Assembly: GCA_024639935.1 (NCBI GenBank)
Contig: JAHEFZ010000009.1
Span: 3,894 to 67,893 of the forward strand
Reading direction: 5' to 3'
DNA length: 64,000 nucleotides
Origin: Microbacteriaceae bacterium
GTDB lineage: Bacteria > Actinomycetota > Actinomycetes > Actinomycetales > Microbacteriaceae
Shown: positions 5,216 through 12,496 of the stretch, piece by piece
How positions within the stretch are numbered: position 1 is the stretch's first letter
How the letters are laid out: each line of letters opens with the position of its first letter
Position numbers and translations under genes: made by a program
The notes under the pieces: generated by a model
The model's database searches: none
The model's input: only the letters and a program-made list of their open reading frames with translations
Told to the model about the DNA's origin: nothing

Positions 5216-6655
5216 ATGTCTCACGCCAACATCGGTGTCGTCGGTCTCGCGGTTATGGGATCGAATCTGGCGCGCAACCTCGCCAGTCGCGAGGGAAACA
5301 GCGTCGCGGTGTACAACCGCTCGTGGGACAAGACGGAACACCTCGTCGAGGCACACCCCGAAGCGAACTTTGTCGCGGCGAAAACGATTCAGGAGTTCGC
5401 CGCGTCGCTCTCGAAACCCCGCACCGCAATCATCATGGTCAAGGCGGGCGCTGGAACTGACGCCGTCATCGACCAATTGTGCGAGGTCTTCGAGCCGGGC
5501 GACATCATCGTCGACGGCGGAAACGCGCTGTTCACGGACACGATTCGTCGCGAAAAAGCGGTCCGCGAGACGGGCATAAATTTTGTTGGCGCGGGCATTT
5601 CCGGTGGTGAAGAGGGCGCTCTGACCGGGCCGTCCATCATGCCCGGCGGTTCGGCCGAGGCGTGGGAGACGCTCGGGCCGATCCTCAAGTCAATCGCCGC
5701 TGTCGTGGACGGCGAACCCTGTGTCACCCACATCGGCACCGACGGCGCCGGCCACTTCGTCAAGATGATTCACAACGGCATCGAGTACGCCGACATGCAG
5801 TTGATCGCCGAGGCGTACGACCTCATCCGTCGCGGCACGGGCAAGTCCCCCGCGGAAATCGCCGACGTTTTCACCGAGTGGAACAAGGGCGAACTCGAGT
5901 CGTACCTGATCGAGATCACCGCCGAAGTTCTGCGCCAGGTCGACGCGTCCACCGGCAAGCCGCTCGTGGACGTCATTCTGGACGAGGCGGGTTCCAAAGG
6001 CACCGGTGTCTGGACTGTTCAGACAGCACTGTCTCTCGGAACTCCTGTGTCGGGAATCGCTGAGGCCGTGTTCGCGCGAGGGCTGTCTTCGCACCCCGAA
6101 CAGCGGACGCTGGCCAGCGGAATGCCTGGCCCCGACTCGTTCACGGTGAAAGACGCCGACGCATTTATCGAGGACGTTCGGCAAGCCCTGTATGCCTCCA
6201 AGATTGTGGCGTATTCACAGGGATTCGACGCGATTCGCGCCGGGGCTGCTGAATACAACTGGAACATCGACCTCGGCGAGGTCGCCCGCATTTGGCGCGG
6301 CGGCTGCATCATTCGCGCACAGTTCCTCAACCGCATAACAGAGGCGTATCGCGCCGACGAATCTCTCGCGCTCTTGATGGCCGCTCCGTATTTTGCGAAA
6401 GCCGTCTCGGGCGCTCAAGCCGCGTGGCGTCGTATCGTCATCGCCGCGACCGAGGCCGGAATCCCGGCCCCCGCGTTCGGATCGTCACTGTCGTACTACG
6501 ACGGACTGCGTGCCGACCGGCTGCCCGCCGCTGTCATCCAAGGCCAGCGCGACTTTTTCGGCGCCCACACTTACAAGCGAGCCGACAAGCCCGGCACGTT
6601 CCACACCCTCTGGTCGGGCGATCGCACCGAGGTCGCGGCGGAAGATACGCATTAG
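5216..6655 (+). CDS. gnd: NADP-dependent 6-phosphogluconate dehydrogenase (decarboxylating)
   Basis: IGVVGLAVMGSNLARNL Rossmann motif. The conserved GHFVKMIHNGIEYADMQLIAEAY and FFGAHTYKR blocks are diagnostic of Gnd. Start trimmed to MSHANIGVVG (the track ORF starts at 5168). Confidence 0.93.
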   Translation: MSHANIGVVGLAVMGSNLARNLASREGNSVAVYNRSWDKTEHLVEAHPEANFVAAKTIQEFAASLSKPRTAIIMVKAGAGTDAVIDQLCEVFEPGDIIVDGGNALFTDTIRREKAVRETGINFVGAGISGGEEGALTGPSIMPGGSAEAWETLGPILKSIAAVVDGEPCVTHIGTDGAGHFVKMIHNGIEYADMQLIAEAYDLIRRGTGKSPAEIADVFTEWNKGELESYLIEITAEVLRQVDASTGKPLVDVILDEAGSKGTGVWTVQTALSLGTPVSGIAEAVFARGLSSHPEQRTLASGMPGPDSFTVKDADAFIEDVRQALYASKIVAYSQGFDAIRAGAAEYNWNIDLGEVARIWRGGCIIRAQFLNRITEAYRADESLALLMAAPYFAKAVSGAQAAWRRIVIAATEAGIPAPAFGSSLSYYDGLRADRLPAAVIQGQRDFFGAHTYKRADKPGTFHTLWSGDRTEVAAEDTH

Positions 6656-6678
6656 ATACGGGTGTAACCCATTCTCAA

Positions 6679-6701
6679 GTGACAGCAGCTCACATTTTTT
6701 T
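6679..6701 (+). terminator. weak candidate intrinsic terminator after gnd (4-bp stem GTGA/TCAC followed by T7)
   Basis: The sequence gtgacagcagctcacattttttt lies 24 nt after the gnd stop. The stem is short, so this is weak. Confidence 0.3.
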
Positions 6702-6823
6702 GGGACCCACTCCCACATCCCTCGCCGTTCCCCTTTTCACAAACGTGGGGAAAAAGGTTTCGGCAGGAATTGAAACTTGCACCAAACGCCTTAGCTGAAG
6801 TGTGAACTTTACGTAATGCAGGG

Positions 6824-7669
6824 CTACCCGGGCAGTTCGGCCCAAATACTCCGAACGTCTTCCAGCGAGTTAAGCTCGCGGAGCGGGGTGAAATCAAAGG
6901 AGTCGCCTTCTTCGTCTAGGTGAATTCGAGTTCCTCTAGCGAAAGCTGGACGCGTAAGTTGGCTGAAGTGTCTCTCGCTGCCAAACTCGACAACATCGAT
7001 CAAGACTGCAATGGTCGACGCCGGTAAGCCCTCATCGTCTTCGATGGATTCATTAGTCCAGCCGTACCAGGGCCTGCCCTTCTTGTTCAAAACCTCTCCC
7101 GTCATAAGGTTGACGATTGCCTCGGGGTTCTCATCGTGAGTAAGTACCCACAACCAAGCCGACCACGAAGTCGATGCAGTTGGAGGGGTCATGCTCCTCC
7201 AACTTTCAGGAATGGAGAATTCTGACAGGAAAGGATGAACTTGTACGTCCTCAGCCTGAACAAAACAACCCCAAATTACGTCCCGGCACCTCGATCGGTC
7301 CTCGCAAAGGAATTGAGCAACTCTGATCGCACCTTTTATAGCTCCGAGATTGAAATCAGCACCTTCACCGGCTGGAACCTCCGACTCAGACATTATGTGC
7401 AACGCCGTTTCTCTGGGAGAGTAAGCCGCTCGTGACCAAATGAACTCGACCAGTTCACCCTCCGCTAGTGCATTTTCACCGAGCCGGTTGAGGAGAATTT
7501 GGTGCTGCTCGTCGTAACTGCTCAAGGTGAGGCAGTCATAATGACCGTCGAAAGGATGGGTGGCCAGTATCGCCCGCTGATTGTCAACCAACTTGAGAAG
7601 TTCAGCACTAACCATCCAAGACAGGATTTTCTTGGCATTACCACTGAGTTCAAAGTCGATTTCAAACAT
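6824..7669 (-). CDS. hypothetical protein (orphan, AT-rich islet)
   Basis: 281-aa ORF with no competing long ORF on the other strand. It lies in a region visibly AT-richer than its flanks. I recognise no family motif. Confidence 0.6.
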   Translation of the reverse strand: MFEIDFELSGNAKKILSWMVSAELLKLVDNQRAILATHPFDGHYDCLTLSSYDEQHQILLNRLGENALAEGELVEFIWSRAAYSPRETALHIMSESEVPAGEGADFNLGAIKGAIRVAQFLCEDRSRCRDVIWGCFVQAEDVQVHPFLSEFSIPESWRSMTPPTASTSWSAWLWVLTHDENPEAIVNLMTGEVLNKKGRPWYGWTNESIEDDEGLPASTIAVLIDVVEFGSERHFSQLTRPAFARGTRIHLDEEGDSFDFTPLRELNSLEDVRSIWAELPG

Positions 7670-7756
7670 ACATAGATTCTCTCATCCACCACCGACAATT
7701 CACGATGTCAGAGGGTGGTCGTAAAGTAACCAATCTCATCGAGAAGGAGGAAGCTT

Positions 7757-8089
7757 ATGTGGATATTTACAAGAGATGGATTCGTGAGCGCGGTTTACAA
7801 GTATGAAGGGGTGCAAGTTCGATCACGCGACAAACAATCGCTGAAGCGCAGTGCGAAATTTTGCGGTGTCGACGTTCGTCATTCACCAATGGCCGACTAT
7901 CCCTATCGGATCACCACGACCAGAGAAAATTTCGCAAATTGGCTGAGCTCTGAAGTCATGGAAATAGATTACTCGAACTTCAAGGCTGAGGTTCAAGTGG
8001 TTCGCGGGCTGAAATTCGTTCGACCGCTTCACTCCGTCTGGGATCTCATGCATGACGTTGAAGACGACAACGCTCGAAACAGTTGTTGA
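7757..8089 (+). CDS. hypothetical small protein (orphan, AT-rich islet)
   Basis: 110-aa ORF preceded by a strong Shine-Dalgarno (gaaggaggaagcttATG). Begins MWIFTRDGFVSAV and contains DYSNFK. Divergent from the 281-aa ORF across 87 bp. Confidence 0.6.
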   Translation: MWIFTRDGFVSAVYKYEGVQVRSRDKQSLKRSAKFCGVDVRHSPMADYPYRITTTRENFANWLSSEVMEIDYSNFKAEVQVVRGLKFVRPLHSVWDLMHDVEDDNARNSC

Positions 8090-8171
8090 CCCGATGTCAC
8101 TGATGTTCGGGCAGTGTGAACTCGATAATCTTGAGTTGTTGAGAATTCCGCGGGAAAAGTGAAGGAGACGA

Positions 8172-9164
8172 TTGATGGAACAAATCAAAAGACTTGCATG
8201 GGATATCTCAAACTGCACCGAAGTGCATAAGGCTCAGGCCGACGGTGCACATCCTTGCCATGGGGTTGTGGACTGGCAGTTCAAGGAATGGCAAAATCTT
8301 GATCCGTCACTGACCGCGGATGAAATATCCAAGAAAAAACTGCAACGCCCCGAAGCTTGGACAGGAGATTTGCAGGGCGCAAAAATTCTTTTCTTGGCGA
8401 GTAATCCGAGTTTTGATTCCAACGAACGATTCCCGACATGGGACGAAACTGGCAAAGCTTGGGATGGTCACTCGTGGGACAAGGAAAGCGTTGTGGCTTT
8501 TGCCTCACACCGATTCGTTGACAAAGGCTCTCGTGACTTCGGTGCTACAGATGGGCCGAATCCTGAAGACTTAGACAGAACCATTCTGGAAGACGGTAAT
8601 GTCTCAGCAAAGGTAAATCATTGGCGATGGGTGCGTAACTTGGCTGCGTTCATCCTTGAAAAATCGGCCGCGGAAACCTCCGCTCACTCTGATTATGTGA
8701 TGACGGAGATAGTGCATTGCAAGTCGACTTACGAGGCCGGGGTTCCCAAAGCCATTCCGAAATGCTCCGAGATGTGGCTAGATCGCATGTGGCAGAACAC
8801 TGGAGCGCGCATAATTATCGTCGCAGGTGCGAAAGCGGGAGAGGAATTTGCTCGGCTTTATGGAGACCAGCTCCCCGACGACTGGGGAAGTTGGACTTCT
8901 AAGCCGTCTTGCCCGTCTAAAGGAAAAGGAACTTGGCCCGCGTCTGTTGATGAACTTGAAAAGTGGGTGGCCGATGATATGTGGGGTGAGACTCAACAGC
9001 GCGCACATACGGCCTCGCTTGAACTCGGAGGCAAGGAACGACTGGTCATTTATTTTGCGCGACCAGGTGGAACAAGTCCGACCGCCCCTTGGAAGAATAA
9101 TTCGCTGTTAGACCAGAGAATCTTAGTTTCTTGGAGAGAAGCACTATCACGCCCCCGAGACTAA
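8172..9164 (+). CDS. hypothetical protein with uracil-DNA glycosylase superfamily-like motif layout (tentative)
   Basis: 330-aa ORF with SD gaaggagacgattgATG. Motif order is KILFLASNPS (aa 71-80; compare G-I/M-N-P-G of the MUG/SMUG families), then VMTEIVHCKS...C..WL...ARIIIVAGAKA (compare family-4 UDG NvvkCRP..C..wL...P.vIv.lG..A), then LVIYFARPGGTS (compare HPS/NPSG motif 2). Judged by eye only. Confidence 0.45.
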   Translation: MMEQIKRLAWDISNCTEVHKAQADGAHPCHGVVDWQFKEWQNLDPSLTADEISKKKLQRPEAWTGDLQGAKILFLASNPSFDSNERFPTWDETGKAWDGHSWDKESVVAFASHRFVDKGSRDFGATDGPNPEDLDRTILEDGNVSAKVNHWRWVRNLAAFILEKSAAETSAHSDYVMTEIVHCKSTYEAGVPKAIPKCSEMWLDRMWQNTGARIIIVAGAKAGEEFARLYGDQLPDDWGSWTSKPSCPSKGKGTWPASVDELEKWVADDMWGETQQRAHTASLELGGKERLVIYFARPGGTSPTAPWKNNSLLDQRILVSWREALSRPRD

Positions 9165-9340
9165 GACGCTCCACGAGCTTTCGTAAACGAATTGATAAAG
9201 TTCGAAAAAGGTGCGTTAATCTCAAATGTCTGACGAATTATTCGTTCCAAACAATTTGTCTAACGGCATCCTCGCGCAACGTTTCGAAATACAATGACCG
9301 TTGTCAATAATAGCGCTTCGGAATCTTCTAAAGTAGTGGC

Positions 9341-10660
9341 ATGAACGATTCGCTCCGCACCCCAACCACAAATGCCGCCGTCCGAACGGCCGACATTGGC
9401 AAGGTCTTTCATTCGTGGTCGGCCCAGTCGACTCTCGCGCCGTTCGTTATCGCCGGGGGTAAGGGCTGTGAGGTCTGGGATTACGAGGGCAACACGTACC
9501 TCGACTTCTCGAGCATGCTCGTCAACGTCAACATCGGGCACCAGCACCCCAAGGTTGTCGAGGCGATCAAGGCGCAAGCCGACATCCTCACCACTGTCGC
9601 TCCCGCTCATGCGAACAACATGCGCGCGCTTGCAGCCCAAAAGATTCTCGACCACGCGCCCGACACGTTCGCGCAGGTGTTCTTCACTAACGGTGGCGCA
9701 GACGCGAATGAAAACGCCATCCGCATGGCTCGCATTCACACGGGTCGCGACAAGGTCATCTCGTTCTACCGCTCGTATCACGGCAACACCGGTGCGGCCG
9801 TGGTCGCAACCGGCGACTGGCGCCGCATCCCCAACGAATATGCTCGCGGACACCTTCATGTCTTTGGCCCGCACCTTTACCGAACCGAATACTGGTCGAC
9901 CAGTCCGGAAATGGAAACAGAGCGCGCCCTGCACCACCTCGAGCGCGTCATCCAGGCACAAGGTTCCGAATCGATCGCGGCGTTCCTTATTGAGACGGTT
10001 CCCGGAACCGCGGGAATCCTGACCCCACCGCCCGGTTTCCTCAAGGGTGTTCGCGCTCTCGCAGACAAGTACGGCATCATCCTGATCCTCGACGAGGTCA
10101 TGGCCGGTTTCGGTCGAACCGGCGAGTGGTTCGCGTTCGATGCTTTCGATGTCGTGCCCGACCTCATCACGTTCGCCAAGGGCGTCAACTCGGGTTATGT
10201 TCCGGTCGGTGGCGTCATCATCTCGGGCGACATCGCAAAGACCTTTGATGACCGCGTCTTCCCCGGTGGACTGACCTATTCCGGCCACCCGCTCGCCGCC
10301 GCCAGCATCGTCGCCGCGATCACCGCGATGGAAAACGAAGGCGTCATCGAAAACGCTCGCTCCATCGGAGCCAACGTTCTAGGCCCTGGACTTCGCGAAT
10401 TGCAGGCGAAACACGACGTCATCGGCGACGTCCGCGGGTCCGGAGTCTTCTGGGCACTCGAGTTCGTCACCGACCGCGAGGCGCGCACCCCCGTTGATGC
10501 CGCCTGGATGGGGAAACTTCGGACAGCACTATTCGCCGCCAAACTCGTTCCGTTCATGGCCGACAACCGTCTGCACGTCGTACCGCCGTGTGTTGTCACC
10601 GAGGACGAGGCTCGTCGCGGACTGGCAATCATCGACCAGGTGTTGGCTGAGCTGAAATAG
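9341..10660 (+). CDS. class-III (omega) pyridoxal-phosphate aminotransferase
   Basis: 439 aa. FTNGGADANENAIRMAR, LDEVMAGFGRTGEWFA and the PLP-lysine context ITFAKG are typical of the aspartate-aminotransferase-family class III enzymes. Confidence 0.9.
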   Translation: MNDSLRTPTTNAAVRTADIGKVFHSWSAQSTLAPFVIAGGKGCEVWDYEGNTYLDFSSMLVNVNIGHQHPKVVEAIKAQADILTTVAPAHANNMRALAAQKILDHAPDTFAQVFFTNGGADANENAIRMARIHTGRDKVISFYRSYHGNTGAAVVATGDWRRIPNEYARGHLHVFGPHLYRTEYWSTSPEMETERALHHLERVIQAQGSESIAAFLIETVPGTAGILTPPPGFLKGVRALADKYGIILILDEVMAGFGRTGEWFAFDAFDVVPDLITFAKGVNSGYVPVGGVIISGDIAKTFDDRVFPGGLTYSGHPLAAASIVAAITAMENEGVIENARSIGANVLGPGLRELQAKHDVIGDVRGSGVFWALEFVTDREARTPVDAAWMGKLRTALFAAKLVPFMADNRLHVVPPCVVTEDEARRGLAIIDQVLAELK

Positions 10661-10682: not shown

Positions 10683-11417
10683 ATGGCACCTATGGACTCC
10701 TCCGAATTCAGCACGTTCCTCGCGTCACGTCGCAGCACCCGCGACTTCTTGCCGAAGCCGGTTCCGCAGAAAGCTATCGACGCGATTCTGACCGACGCGA
10801 TGACGGCCCCGAGCTGGTCGAACACCCGCCCTTACATGGTCGCGGTGGCGACGGGCGAAGTGCGCGATCGGATTTCTACCGAATTGCAGCGCCGGTGGGC
10901 GATTGCCGGCCACGCGATGCGTGGCTCGTGGTGGGACAAGGTGCTGTTCTTCCTCAAGCGCGACGGTCTGCCAACAAGCGACTATCAGGTGTGGCGACCG
11001 TACCCGAAAGACGTGCAGCCGCGCAGCCACAAGATCGGCCGTGACCTCTACGCGCACATCGGCGTCGCTCGCGGAGACAAGGTCGGTCGCGACGAACAAT
11101 GGGCACGAAACTTCGACATGTTCGGTGCCCCCGTTGCAATCTTCGTGTTCACACACAAGGGATTGCCGACCTACGCGGTATCCGACGCCGGGCTGTTCAT
11201 GCAAAACCTGATTTTGTCCGCCCACGCCCGCGGGCTCGGAACCTGCGCCCAGGGCGCTCTCGCCCTGTGGTCTGACCCAGTGAAAGCGGAATTCGACGTG
11301 CCGAAGCAATACAAGTTGCTGTGCGGCATCGCGCTGGGTTATCCCTCGAAAGACAAGGTCAACGGATTCCGTGCCGAGCGTCTGCCGATTGGTGACATCA
11401 CCCTCAACCCGCGTTAG
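10683..11417 (+). CDS. nitroreductase family protein
   Basis: 244 aa with N-terminal RRSTRDFLPKPVP...I..IL..A..APSWSNTRPY and C-terminal LGTCAQGAL, both typical of the NAD(P)H nitroreductase fold. Confidence 0.85.
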   Translation: MAPMDSSEFSTFLASRRSTRDFLPKPVPQKAIDAILTDAMTAPSWSNTRPYMVAVATGEVRDRISTELQRRWAIAGHAMRGSWWDKVLFFLKRDGLPTSDYQVWRPYPKDVQPRSHKIGRDLYAHIGVARGDKVGRDEQWARNFDMFGAPVAIFVFTHKGLPTYAVSDAGLFMQNLILSAHARGLGTCAQGALALWSDPVKAEFDVPKQYKLLCGIALGYPSKDKVNGFRAERLPIGDITLNPR

Positions 11418-12496
11418 CGGTCGCCATACAGCGCGGTGGCAAACGCGCGGTTGACGAAGAGCCGATCCCGACCCACCTTGTGCGATTCCAGCACACCAAT
11501 CGCCGCGAGCCGATCGAGCCACTTAGTTGCGGTTGGGCGGCTTACCTGGCATCGCGTGACGACATCGCGAATGCGCGAATACGGTTGCGTGAACAGCACC
11601 TCGATCAGGGCGGAATTAGTGGCCCCAAATTCGTCGCGAATTCGATCGCGAACGTCGAGATGAGCATGAAGAATGCGGTTGACCGTCGCCGTTGCCGACA
11701 CCGCCGTGGTCTCGACTCCACGGACAAAGTAAAGAATCCAGTCGTGCCATTCTCCCCGAGCGGTGACGCCCATCAGACGCTCGTAATACTCCGCCTTTGT
11801 GGCGATGAAGTATCGCGACAGATACAGCACGGGCATCTTAAGCAACCCCCACTCGGCGAGCAACAACAGGTTGAGGATGCGGCCCGTTCGACCATTTCCA
11901 TCGGGGAACGGGTGAATCGCCTCAAATTGATAGTGCGCAACGGCAAGGCGAACGAGTGGGTCGACCTCGTCGCGCCGGTGGATGTATTCCTCCCAGTTCG
12001 ACATGAGCCGAAGCACATTGTCACGACCGGTCGGAGGCGTGTAGGTCACGGTTTTTGTCAGCGGGTTTCCGATAAACGTCCCAGCATCAGTGCGAATCGC
12101 GGTGTCGTAGCCGAGGATTGCCGAGCAGATACTCGTTGCTGTGCTCGTCGAAAGCGGCCGCTGACCAATCGAGTCGAACCCAACTCGTAGCGCCGTGCGA
12201 TACCGCAGGGCTTCGCGCGTTGCGGGGTCTGCACCCGCAAGCCCCTGTATATCCGCCTGGAACATCTCGTCGTTCGTCGTGACGATGTTCTCAATCTCGG
12301 AACTGGCTTGTGCCTCGACAACGGGAATCGCGTTGATTAGAACCGCAGGGTTCGGGATGTATCGGCTTCGAGTGTCGAGTTCCATCAGTGCGACCCGCGC
12401 GGCGGTCGTCGCCCGCAACACCTCGATCGTCTCGACGACGAGGTTGGGTGGGATCAAGGGCAGGTCGTTGTGTGCGACCTCTGCGCGGAAAGACAT
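11414..12496 (-). CDS. Fic family protein (AMPylase-type, class II with N-terminal inhibitory motif)
   Basis: 360 aa. Fic active-site motif HPFPDGNGRTGR (HxFx[DE]GNGRxxR). Upstream SSEIEN matches the inhibitory [ST]xxxE[GN] helix. The C-terminal part looks winged-helix-like. Its stop overlaps the nitroreductase stop by 4 nt (convergent). Confidence 0.9.
   Translation of the reverse strand: MSFRAEVAHNDLPLIPPNLVVETIEVLRATTAARVALMELDTRSRYIPNPAVLINAIPVVEAQASSEIENIVTTNDEMFQADIQGLAGADPATREALRYRTALRVGFDSIGQRPLSTSTATSICSAILGYDTAIRTDAGTFIGNPLTKTVTYTPPTGRDNVLRLMSNWEEYIHRRDEVDPLVRLAVAHYQFEAIHPFPDGNGRTGRILNLLLLAEWGLLKMPVLYLSRYFIATKAEYYERLMGVTARGEWHDWILYFVRGVETTAVSATATVNRILHAHLDVRDRIRDEFGATNSALIEVLFTQPYSRIRDVVTRCQVSRPTATKWLDRLAAIGVLESHKVGRDRLFVNRAFATALYGDR

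Follow-up and report, generated by a model that had tools for sequence, protein, structure and literature searches.

A divergent uracil-DNA glycosylase-like protein, putatively an anti-phage effector, in a mobile three-gene cassette of Microbacteriaceae

We analysed a stretch of 64,000 nucleotides from a Microbacteriaceae bacterium (contig JAHEFZ010000009.1, positions 3,894 to 67,893; hereafter the window), which contains a gene for a protein resembling uracil-DNA glycosylases (UDGs). This UDG-like gene (8175..9164, + strand) is the last of three genes on a low-GC islet of 2.66 kb (6656..9319), located between gnd, coding for 6-phosphogluconate dehydrogenase and ending at 6655, and an aminotransferase gene starting at 9341. 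The islet has a GC content of 0.50, as compared to 0.63 and 0.61 in the flanks, and in sister Microbacteriaceae (loci L098, L099, L100, L101 and L104) gnd and the aminotransferase gene are directly adjacent, with a gap of 53-107 bp. An earlier reading of the window by a model that saw only the letters (the sequence-only reading) had taken the islet for foreign DNA, and both the composition and the empty sites agree with this. The first gene of the islet, transcribed divergently from the other two (6824..7669, - strand), encodes a 281-aa TY-Chap2 protein, chaperone-like and of the T3SS/YbjN type (T3SS, type III secretion system) (Pfam PF22553, E 3.9e-10). It is followed by an 87-bp divergent intergenic region (7670..7756), which presumably holds a shared promoter/operator, by the gene of a conserved 110-aa protein (7757..8089, + strand) and by the UDG-like gene.

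The open reading frame (ORF) of the UDG-like protein is present at 8172..9164 of the + strand and, when read from TTG 8172, yields the 330-aa translation reported previously. ATG 8175 is the likelier start, because an AAGGAG Shine-Dalgarno sequence lies 8 nt upstream and because the resulting 329-aa product is identical to a database protein from public metagenomes (P0001). Residue numbers below are those of the window protein. Three peptides had been singled out in the sequence-only reading, and all three are found in the translation. KILFLASNPS occupies 8382-8411, one codon away from the reported 8385, and VMTEIVHCKS occupies 8697-8726, two codons away from the reported 8703, while the position of LVIYFARPGGTS at 9042-9077 was exact. 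The C..WL motif, beginning with C198, starts at 8763.

A set of 5.8 billion proteins contained 156 full-length homologues of the window protein, all labelled "hypothetical". An exhaustive profile search extended the superfamily to 1,163 clusters (50% identity) with E<=1e-3, of which 848 reach E<=1e-10; most are of about 250 aa and all are unannotated. Three alignments were used: A1, with 45 sequences including the window protein (the ~315-aa clade), which shows very strong conservation; A3, a profile of 60 members of the short clade (~250 aa); and Tk, a superfamily-wide alignment of 37 sequences. Comparison of A1 with A3 by hhalign gave a probability of 100% and an E of 4.5e-65, and the two clades thus belong to one superfamily.

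The AlphaFold2 (AF2) model of the window protein, built from A1, has a mean predicted local distance difference test score (pLDDT) of 88.9 and a predicted template-modelling score (pTM) of 0.90. When this model was compared with the PDB by Foldseek, the top 38 matches were all members of the UDG superfamily, with target-normalised template-modelling scores of 0.44-0.55. Family 4 ranked first (1ui1 at E 2.9e-4, 4zbx, 1ui0 and 1vk2, with probability 1.00), followed by family 5 (2d3y), UdgX and then, more weakly, TDG/MUG/SMUG; a search of a viral structure library returned COG1573 UDGs. Profile comparisons, which like the structural one had been set beforehand as a check, pointed to the same superfamily, and neither check refuted the idea of a UDG. 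The window protein alone matched PF03167 at E 6.4e-4 (20.3 bits, gathering score 24.3), and 20 of the 45 members of A1 matched it too. The A3 profile, searched against 177,635 PDB sequences, retrieved 4zbx (E 4.2e-6), 1ui0 (E 2.6e-5) and 1l9g/1vk2 (about 4e-3). The corresponding alignments cover the base-stacking region, TE.VHCKS/TN.VKCRP and C..[WY]L and, in 4zbx, also include the His-Pro of motif B. A single-sequence phmmer search of the PDB with the window protein gave no match, and its search against NCBIfam gave only a spurious OXA match. On the basis of the model and of the profiles, we conclude that the window protein is a divergent member of the UDG superfamily, with its alpha/beta fold, as had been proposed from the order of the motifs, and that a chance resemblance to UDGs is effectively excluded. 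Although it has the fold and the profile similarity of the superfamily, its residues place it outside all described UDG families, in agreement with the sequence-only reading: the defining motifs of families 1-5 are absent.

The residues that are invariant across phyla are C15, C29, Q36, P60, E61, W63, G65, N78, P79, V181, H182, C183, K184, S185, C198 and G219. Several of them (N78, P79, H182, C183, K184, S185 and C198) form the motifs noticed at first, which, being unchanged in the 45-, 37- and 60-sequence alignments and in many phyla, go far beyond chance. Exactly four cysteines are invariant in these alignments: C15, C29, C183 and C198. The last two belong to the segment T-E179-IV-H-C183-K-S ... 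C198-xx-WL (8703..8765, + strand), which includes motif 3. HMMER comparisons with 1ui0 and 4zbx align HCKS ... C..WL with VKCRPP ... C..WL, as the supposed parallel to the family-4 core required, so that C183 and C198 coincide with cysteines that bind the cluster in family 4. The other two lie in C15 ... H27-P-C29 (8214..8258, + strand), among the N-terminal helices, at the place of the second cysteine pair of family 4. The description of the first 70 residues or so as an N-terminal extension is not sustained: this region is conserved family-wide and holds C15 and C29, which rules it out as an extra domain. UDGs of family 4, family 5 and the UdgX type carry a 4Fe-4S cluster (PMC4787834). Considering the four invariant cysteines, two of them in family-4 register, and the iron-sulfur nature of these families, the window protein probably binds a [4Fe-4S] cluster; C15 and C29 are candidate ligands by virtue of their position. 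Neither this iron-sulfur signature nor the conserved partner genes had been remarked upon in the sequence-only reading.

Motif A, with its lead-in (RPEAWTGD ... KILFLA-SNPS, 8346..8411, + strand), follows the predicted strand E72-75. It is [AS]-S-N-P-S in the whole family and A-S-N-P-S in the window protein, where N78 is the candidate catalytic asparagine. H150-W151 (8619..8624, + strand; family consensus F/Y-W) is aligned with the Phe used for stacking in 1ui0 (RPFVG) and marks the base-stacking aromatic position. In motif 3 the Asn of family 4 is replaced by a nearly invariant Glu, E179 (35 of 37 sequences): the window protein reads T-E179-IVHCKS and the short clade TE.VHCKS. The two clades differ at motif B, which in the short clade is canonical (L-P-H-P-N-A-R) and in the ~315-aa clade consists of A/S-R/K-P/S and a Gly-rich loop, represented in the window protein by A-R297-P-G-G (9057..9071, + strand). 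The assignment of ARP to this position, made in the sequence-only reading, holds in the profile alignments, because hhalign of A1 with A3 pairs ARPGG with PHPNA and the short-clade HPNAR pairs in turn with HPAA of 4zbx. The ~315-aa clade has, in addition, an insert some 41 aa long (residues 237-277, DWGSW...GKGTWP...W...QQR; 8880..9002, + strand), delimited by hhalign and MAFFT, which contains the clade-invariant W238, G253, W255, P256 and W271 and is missing from the short clade.

The sequence-only reading had drawn an analogy with Brig1, an anti-phage DNA glycosylase, and the relation appears to be more than an analogy. The supplement of Hossain et al. (2024) supplied the sequence of Brig1, in which Y121, N145 and E147 were found to agree with the published numbering. 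Comparison of the short clade (A3) with an alignment of the Brig1 family (37 homologues) by hhalign gave a probability of 88.4% with E 2.8e-6 over 149 columns, and comparison with Brig1 itself gave 86% and E 5e-6; across both comparisons 136-149 columns were aligned. In this register PEPWnGdi...SSNPS corresponds to PDPWVGDL...GLNPG, F/Y-W (H150-W151 in the window protein) to Y121-W122, and T-E-VVHCKS to F-E147-LYPWHS, with E179 opposite E147. Two of the residues concerned are essential, since mutation of either Y121 or E147 abolishes Brig1 activity (PMC11078745), and both fall on conserved positions of the UDG-like family. Scores to Brig1 were marginal (11.8 bits or less with HMMER, about 15 bits or less with phmmer).

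The three genes of the islet recur together. The same trio, at 67% and 74% identity, was found with other flanks (DUF805; an MmeI-type restriction-modification (RM) enzyme), and TY-Chap2 occupies the same position in L084-L091 and, in a more diverged form, in L092-L096. An expanded form, with the order TY-Chap2, small protein, 171-aa protein, 167-aa protein and UDG-like protein, is part of an island with Mrr, HIRAN and type-I/IIG RM genes. Two uncharacterised proteins, of 124-171 aa and 167 aa, are encoded ahead of the UDG-like gene in L001 (5131-6011), L004 and L092 (6380-7391), in Nanopelagicaceae and on a JGI contig; they show 35-38% identity between these loci and have no Pfam match. Close to the riboflavin operon in L093 (4967-12378; also L094 and L095), TY-Chap2 and a 125-aa protein accompany a divergent UDG-like protein (28% identity) and further genes. 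These comprise a 179-aa protein whose C-terminus resembles sigma-70 region 4, a DSPc phosphatase, a fusion of TY-Chap3 to HNH repeats, a 180-aa restriction endonuclease-like protein and an SNF2 helicase. In L096 (5044-6330) the divergent pair of TY-Chap2 and 110-aa genes occurs without a UDG-like gene, and for this reason we regard the two as a separable two-gene core, to which various genes appear to have been joined downstream.

The 110-aa protein, preceded by a strong GGAGG Shine-Dalgarno sequence upstream of ATG 7757, follows the pattern MWIFT..GF.SAV...VRxRD...ADYPYR...NFK...VED..AR. It has at least 188 homologues (47-75% identity), none of them annotated, and is better conserved than the glycosylase-like protein, with 25 invariant residues including W2, R22, R24, D25, ADYPYR (46-51), N74, K76 and D103. 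Its AF2 model (pLDDT 90.7) consists of a beta-sheet and three helices and found nothing significant in the PDB by Foldseek (best E 0.28; the best matches, with E 0.3-0.8, are LAGLIDADG and T3SS-chaperone folds). The Pfam candidates were inconsistent and were discarded (of 38 members, one matched DUF7870 and three LpxC). Of seven distinct contexts, L002 is the only one in which it lacks TY-Chap2 beside it, and L096 the only one without the UDG-like gene.

At the borders of the islet we found no integrase, no att-type or flanking repeats and no tRNA-like target, but only short chance repeats. A promoter and terminator scan of the islet stayed at background, with no sigma-70-like consensus in 7670..7756. 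In this lineage of Microbacteriaceae, the spacer between gnd and the aminotransferase gene is a hot spot of repeated insertion, empty in some genomes and carrying other cargo elsewhere: a 251-aa YVTN beta-propeller repeat protein in L097 (1500-2457) and an insert of about 1.5 kb in L102, L103 and L105, which in L103 (4538-6000) encodes a 463-aa amine-oxidase-like flavoprotein. The host is a freshwater member of the Microbacteriaceae, and the aminotransferase next to the islet is 92% identical to those of metagenome-assembled genomes (MAGs) from this family. A 360-aa Fic-domain protein with the motif HPFPDGNGRTGR is encoded 2 kb downstream of the islet (11414-12496, - strand), after the aminotransferase gene and a nitroreductase-like gene, in a region with a slightly lower GC content, of 0.57-0.59.

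Other loci of the ~315-aa clade are arrays of the type VWA-DSPc-(S8 peptidase)-TY-Chap3-UDG-like-HDAC-(small protein)-trypsin/NERD, with GmrSD and DndB among the neighbours. In several proteins the UDG-like domain is fused to a second one: to TY-Chap3 in P0267 and P0296, to TY-Chap2 (weakly) in P0380, to TIR in P0027, P0031, P0036 and P0041, and to SIR2 (SIR2_2) in P0305. Overall, TY-Chap2 or TY-Chap3 is adjacent or fused in L003, L006, L090-L095 and the three TY-Chap fusions. The TIR fusions of L177 (468-6112) and L178 (710-4229) stand beside large proteins with DUF6884 and GIY_YIG_2 (with DUF7662 or DUF7669/MIT_C); L177 also contains an Exo_endo_phos (ExoIII/APE-type) gene, and loci of this type may represent a glycosylase-plus-nuclease module. 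In the unrelated contigs of L002 (7070-8222) and L003 (6944-8182) a gene of the HDAC family (PF00850) directly follows the UDG-like gene, and a homologue of the 110-aa protein (45% identity) comes next in L002; an amidohydrolase beside a glycosylase could hint at acylated base modifications.

The TIR and SIR2_2 fusions bear on the manner in which the UDG-like domain would act, because in defence proteins such domains are usually the effectors and the other domain is the sensor. It might then sense or tightly bind unusual DNA and excise nothing, in the manner of UdgX, which binds its lesion and does not release it, and report to TY-Chap2 and the 110-aa protein, to TIR or to SIR2, which would carry out the response. 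The loss of the motif-B His in the window clade would fit such a function, for which UdgX, found among the Foldseek matches, provides a precedent in the same iron-sulfur branch (PMC4787834). We nonetheless consider it quite unlikely: the window cassette has no recognisable enzyme besides the UDG-like protein, which lacks a KRRIH loop of the UdgX type, N78 is invariant, and E179, present in 35 of 37 sequences, is matched to the catalytic-pocket residue E147 of the active Brig1.

The distribution of the superfamily touches on another explanation, namely that the protein is an ordinary repair glycosylase for uracil, hypoxanthine or oxidised pyrimidines, spread by horizontal transfer and constituting a seventh UDG family. 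Clustering of the ORFs of 80 loci, with a Pfam/PADLOC census of 118 neighbours, revealed no universal partner. In Dehalococcoidia the short form (about 240-260 aa with HPNAR; L039, L055, L067 and L074) has a stable neighbourhood, with a short-chain dehydrogenase (SDR) upstream and the clusters c19, c24, c51 and c52 downstream; L071 and L075 (8001-9327) have a tandem duplicate. This form resembles a resident repair gene rather more than it does a defence gene. A 304-aa member with the four cysteines, SNPS and HCKS (L078, 2826-3479) comes from a contig that has been assigned to a MAG of Heimdallarchaeota, the sole archaeal record among the 80 genome-collection loci. The fact that the closest solved structures are family-4 UDGs, together with the stable chromosomal arrangement SDR-T-c19-c24 among metabolic neighbours in Dehalococcoidia, would suit a repair enzyme. 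For the window protein, however, we give this explanation little credence, since its gene lies on an insertion missing from sister genomes and moves, together with those of TY-Chap2 and the 110-aa protein, to loci beside RM systems. The TIR and SIR2 fusions likewise speak against a plain repair enzyme, and motifs A, 3 and B are all unlike those of uracil-specific families.

A third explanation comes from the gene neighbourhoods. TY-Chap1-3, vWA proteins and rhodanese-phosphatase-type phosphatases are accessories of conflict systems centred on ADP-ribosylglycohydrolase (ARG) (Iyer et al., 2022; PMC9503650), and such partners flank the UDG-like gene in L002, L003, L006 and L093, where no ARG is present. 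The UDG-like protein might stand in for ARG and act on ADP-ribose-linked substrates, such as ADP-ribosylated DNA or RNA bases or other N-glycosidic adducts derived from NAD, an idea that is in line with its fusions to the NAD-consuming domains TIR and SIR2. Brig1 itself adjoins an ARG in its three-gene operon, yet it works without that neighbour (PMC11078745). The window islet has neither an ARG nor a phosphatase, and this explanation has the context alone as its basis. Moreover, every characterised UDG-fold protein known to us acts on DNA bases, and we judge an ADP-ribose-directed enzyme to be very unlikely.

Taken as a whole, the evidence makes it fairly probable that the window protein is a DNA glycosylase of defence type, the anti-phage effector of a small mobile cassette and a remote relative of Brig1. 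The enzyme would flip a base that is non-canonical, most likely a modified pyrimidine specific to phages, out of the DNA; the pocket receiving it would be made up of motif A (SNPS), H150-W151 as the stacking position and motif 3 (E179). Cleavage of the N-glycosidic bond would involve a water molecule positioned by N78 and/or E179, and the predicted iron-sulfur cluster would have a structural function. The resulting abasic sites would block phage replication, as those made by Brig1 do (PMC11078745). The replacement of the motif-B His by Arg and a Gly-rich loop, with the 41-aa insert, suggests a leaving group or substrate other than uracil; the remodelled loop and the insert may together set a new specificity. 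As a separate conserved pair, TY-Chap2 and the 110-aa protein would probably regulate the enzyme, sense for it or restrain it.

Several observations weigh against this interpretation. The glycosylase activity of all members of the family is a prediction. On its own, the window protein lies under the Pfam gathering score for UDGs and has no match in PADLOC, PHROGs or NCBIfam. Its clade is related to the Brig1 family only weakly by hhalign (11-18%, with E 1.3e-3 at 18%, in the same register) and by HMMER (about 1.5 bits). Having lost the motif-B His, which stabilises the leaving group in most UDGs, the members of this clade could be inactive or have a target other than DNA. The window islet contains no other recognisable defence gene. 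The short relatives of about 250 aa are mostly located among metabolic and housekeeping genes and have no conserved defence partner, so that the cassette and the defence signal are limited to the ~315-aa clade and the fusions, and a role in defence should not be ascribed to the superfamily as a whole.

A more specific proposal combines elements of these explanations: a new immune system of three components, in which an iron-sulfur UDG-fold enzyme would be gated by TY-Chap2 and the 110-aa protein and would replace ARG. The altered motif B and the 41-aa insert would fit this enzyme to a bulky adduct (e.g., an ADP-ribosylated or otherwise hypermodified base) so far not known to be a glycosylase substrate, and the family would form an evolutionary bridge from family-4 UDGs to Brig1. 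We regard this as possible but unlikely, and retain the mobile anti-phage glycosylase, a remote relative of Brig1, as the preferred interpretation.

To our knowledge, anti-phage DNA glycosylases (Brig1, Brig2, Brig3 and the Dag proteins) have been known as a class only from 2024 onwards, each with a different base modification of phages as its target. The family described here is a large, unannotated group with a UDG fold, which combines the iron-sulfur signature of family 4 with Brig1-like pocket residues and by this combination links the housekeeping iron-sulfur UDGs to Brig1. It is a source of candidates for new base specificities, and new glycosylases for modified bases would be useful for mapping DNA modifications. 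The coupling to TY-chaperone-like proteins, by adjacency and by fusion, and the links to TIR and SIR2 suggest a form of regulated or multi-effector glycosylase immunity not described before, and would give a concrete role to the TY-Chap families, so far known from predictions only. In the literature on TY-Chap and YbjN in defence and on TIR-linked UDGs we found no description of the UDG-like family.

Among the known glycosylases, the UDGs of family 4 (UDGa; Thermus thermophilus 1UI0, Sulfolobus tokodaii 4ZBX and Thermotoga maritima 1VK2) are the closest matches in both structure and sequence. They have in common with the UDG-like family the alpha/beta fold, four conserved cysteines, of which the central pair (xxC[RK]x ... 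C..[WY]L) is in register with the iron-sulfur ligands, and, as far as the short clade is concerned, the H-P of motif B. However, motif A is GE[AG]PG in family 4 and [AS]SNPS in the UDG-like family, the motif-3 Asn (TN[IV]VKCRP) corresponds to Glu, and motif B (HP[SA]xxLR) corresponds in the window clade to ARPGG, that is Arg/Lys and a Gly-rich loop. The spacing of the N-terminal cysteines is C-x13-C rather than C-x2-C, the window protein is about 120 aa longer and carries inserts, and its gene lies on a mobile islet, whereas family-4 genes occupy a housekeeping locus. With motifs A, 3 and B all different, membership of family 4 is ruled out. With MUG/TDG (family 2) and SMUG (family 3), to which ASNPS had been likened, the protein shares the register of the Asn-Pro of motif A (GINPG/GMNPG vs. 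SSNPS; motif definitions in PMC4787834). These enzymes have no iron-sulfur cluster and a different motif B, and their Foldseek E-values are 0.07-0.3 as compared to 3e-4 for family 4. Membership of these families is ruled out as well, given that only the N-P core is common, the four invariant cysteines are present and the Foldseek matches are weak.

With respect to the ARG-centred systems, the likeness concerns the surroundings of the UDG-like genes, where TY-Chap2/3, vWA, rhodanese-phosphatase/DSPc phosphatases and variable nuclease and helicase add-ons are found. A Nudix protein or a WYL regulator is part of over 42% of the ARG-centred systems, and no UDG is named among their components (PMC9503650); in contrast, the window islet and the other loci examined gave no match to ARG, Nudix or WYL.

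Brig1 and the UDG-like family have in common the UDG fold, the lead-in P-[DE]-P-[WY]-x-G-D-L, the xNPx of motif A, the motif-3 Glu and the aromatic-Trp position, and the best structural match of Brig1 is also the S. tokodaii family-4 UDG. Both are actinobacterial/cyanobacterial and are found in defence islands, with SIR2, vWA, S8 peptidase and NERD among the neighbours; since homologues occur near such genes and Brig1 lies beside an ARG, the setting is the same. On the other hand, Brig1 has none of the four cysteines (HCKS is replaced by PWHS) and acts alone, as a single gene, with no TY-Chap2 or 110-aa partners reported. None of 52 Brig1 homologues overlaps with the UDG-like family, and scores and motifs rule out membership of the Brig1 family proper, which leaves the window protein a remote relative. 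Since Brig1 is devoid of the cysteines and its profile matches no UDG among the PDB sequences, whereas that of the UDG-like family does, the latter looks like an iron-sulfur-bearing intermediate between family-4 UDGs and Brig1.

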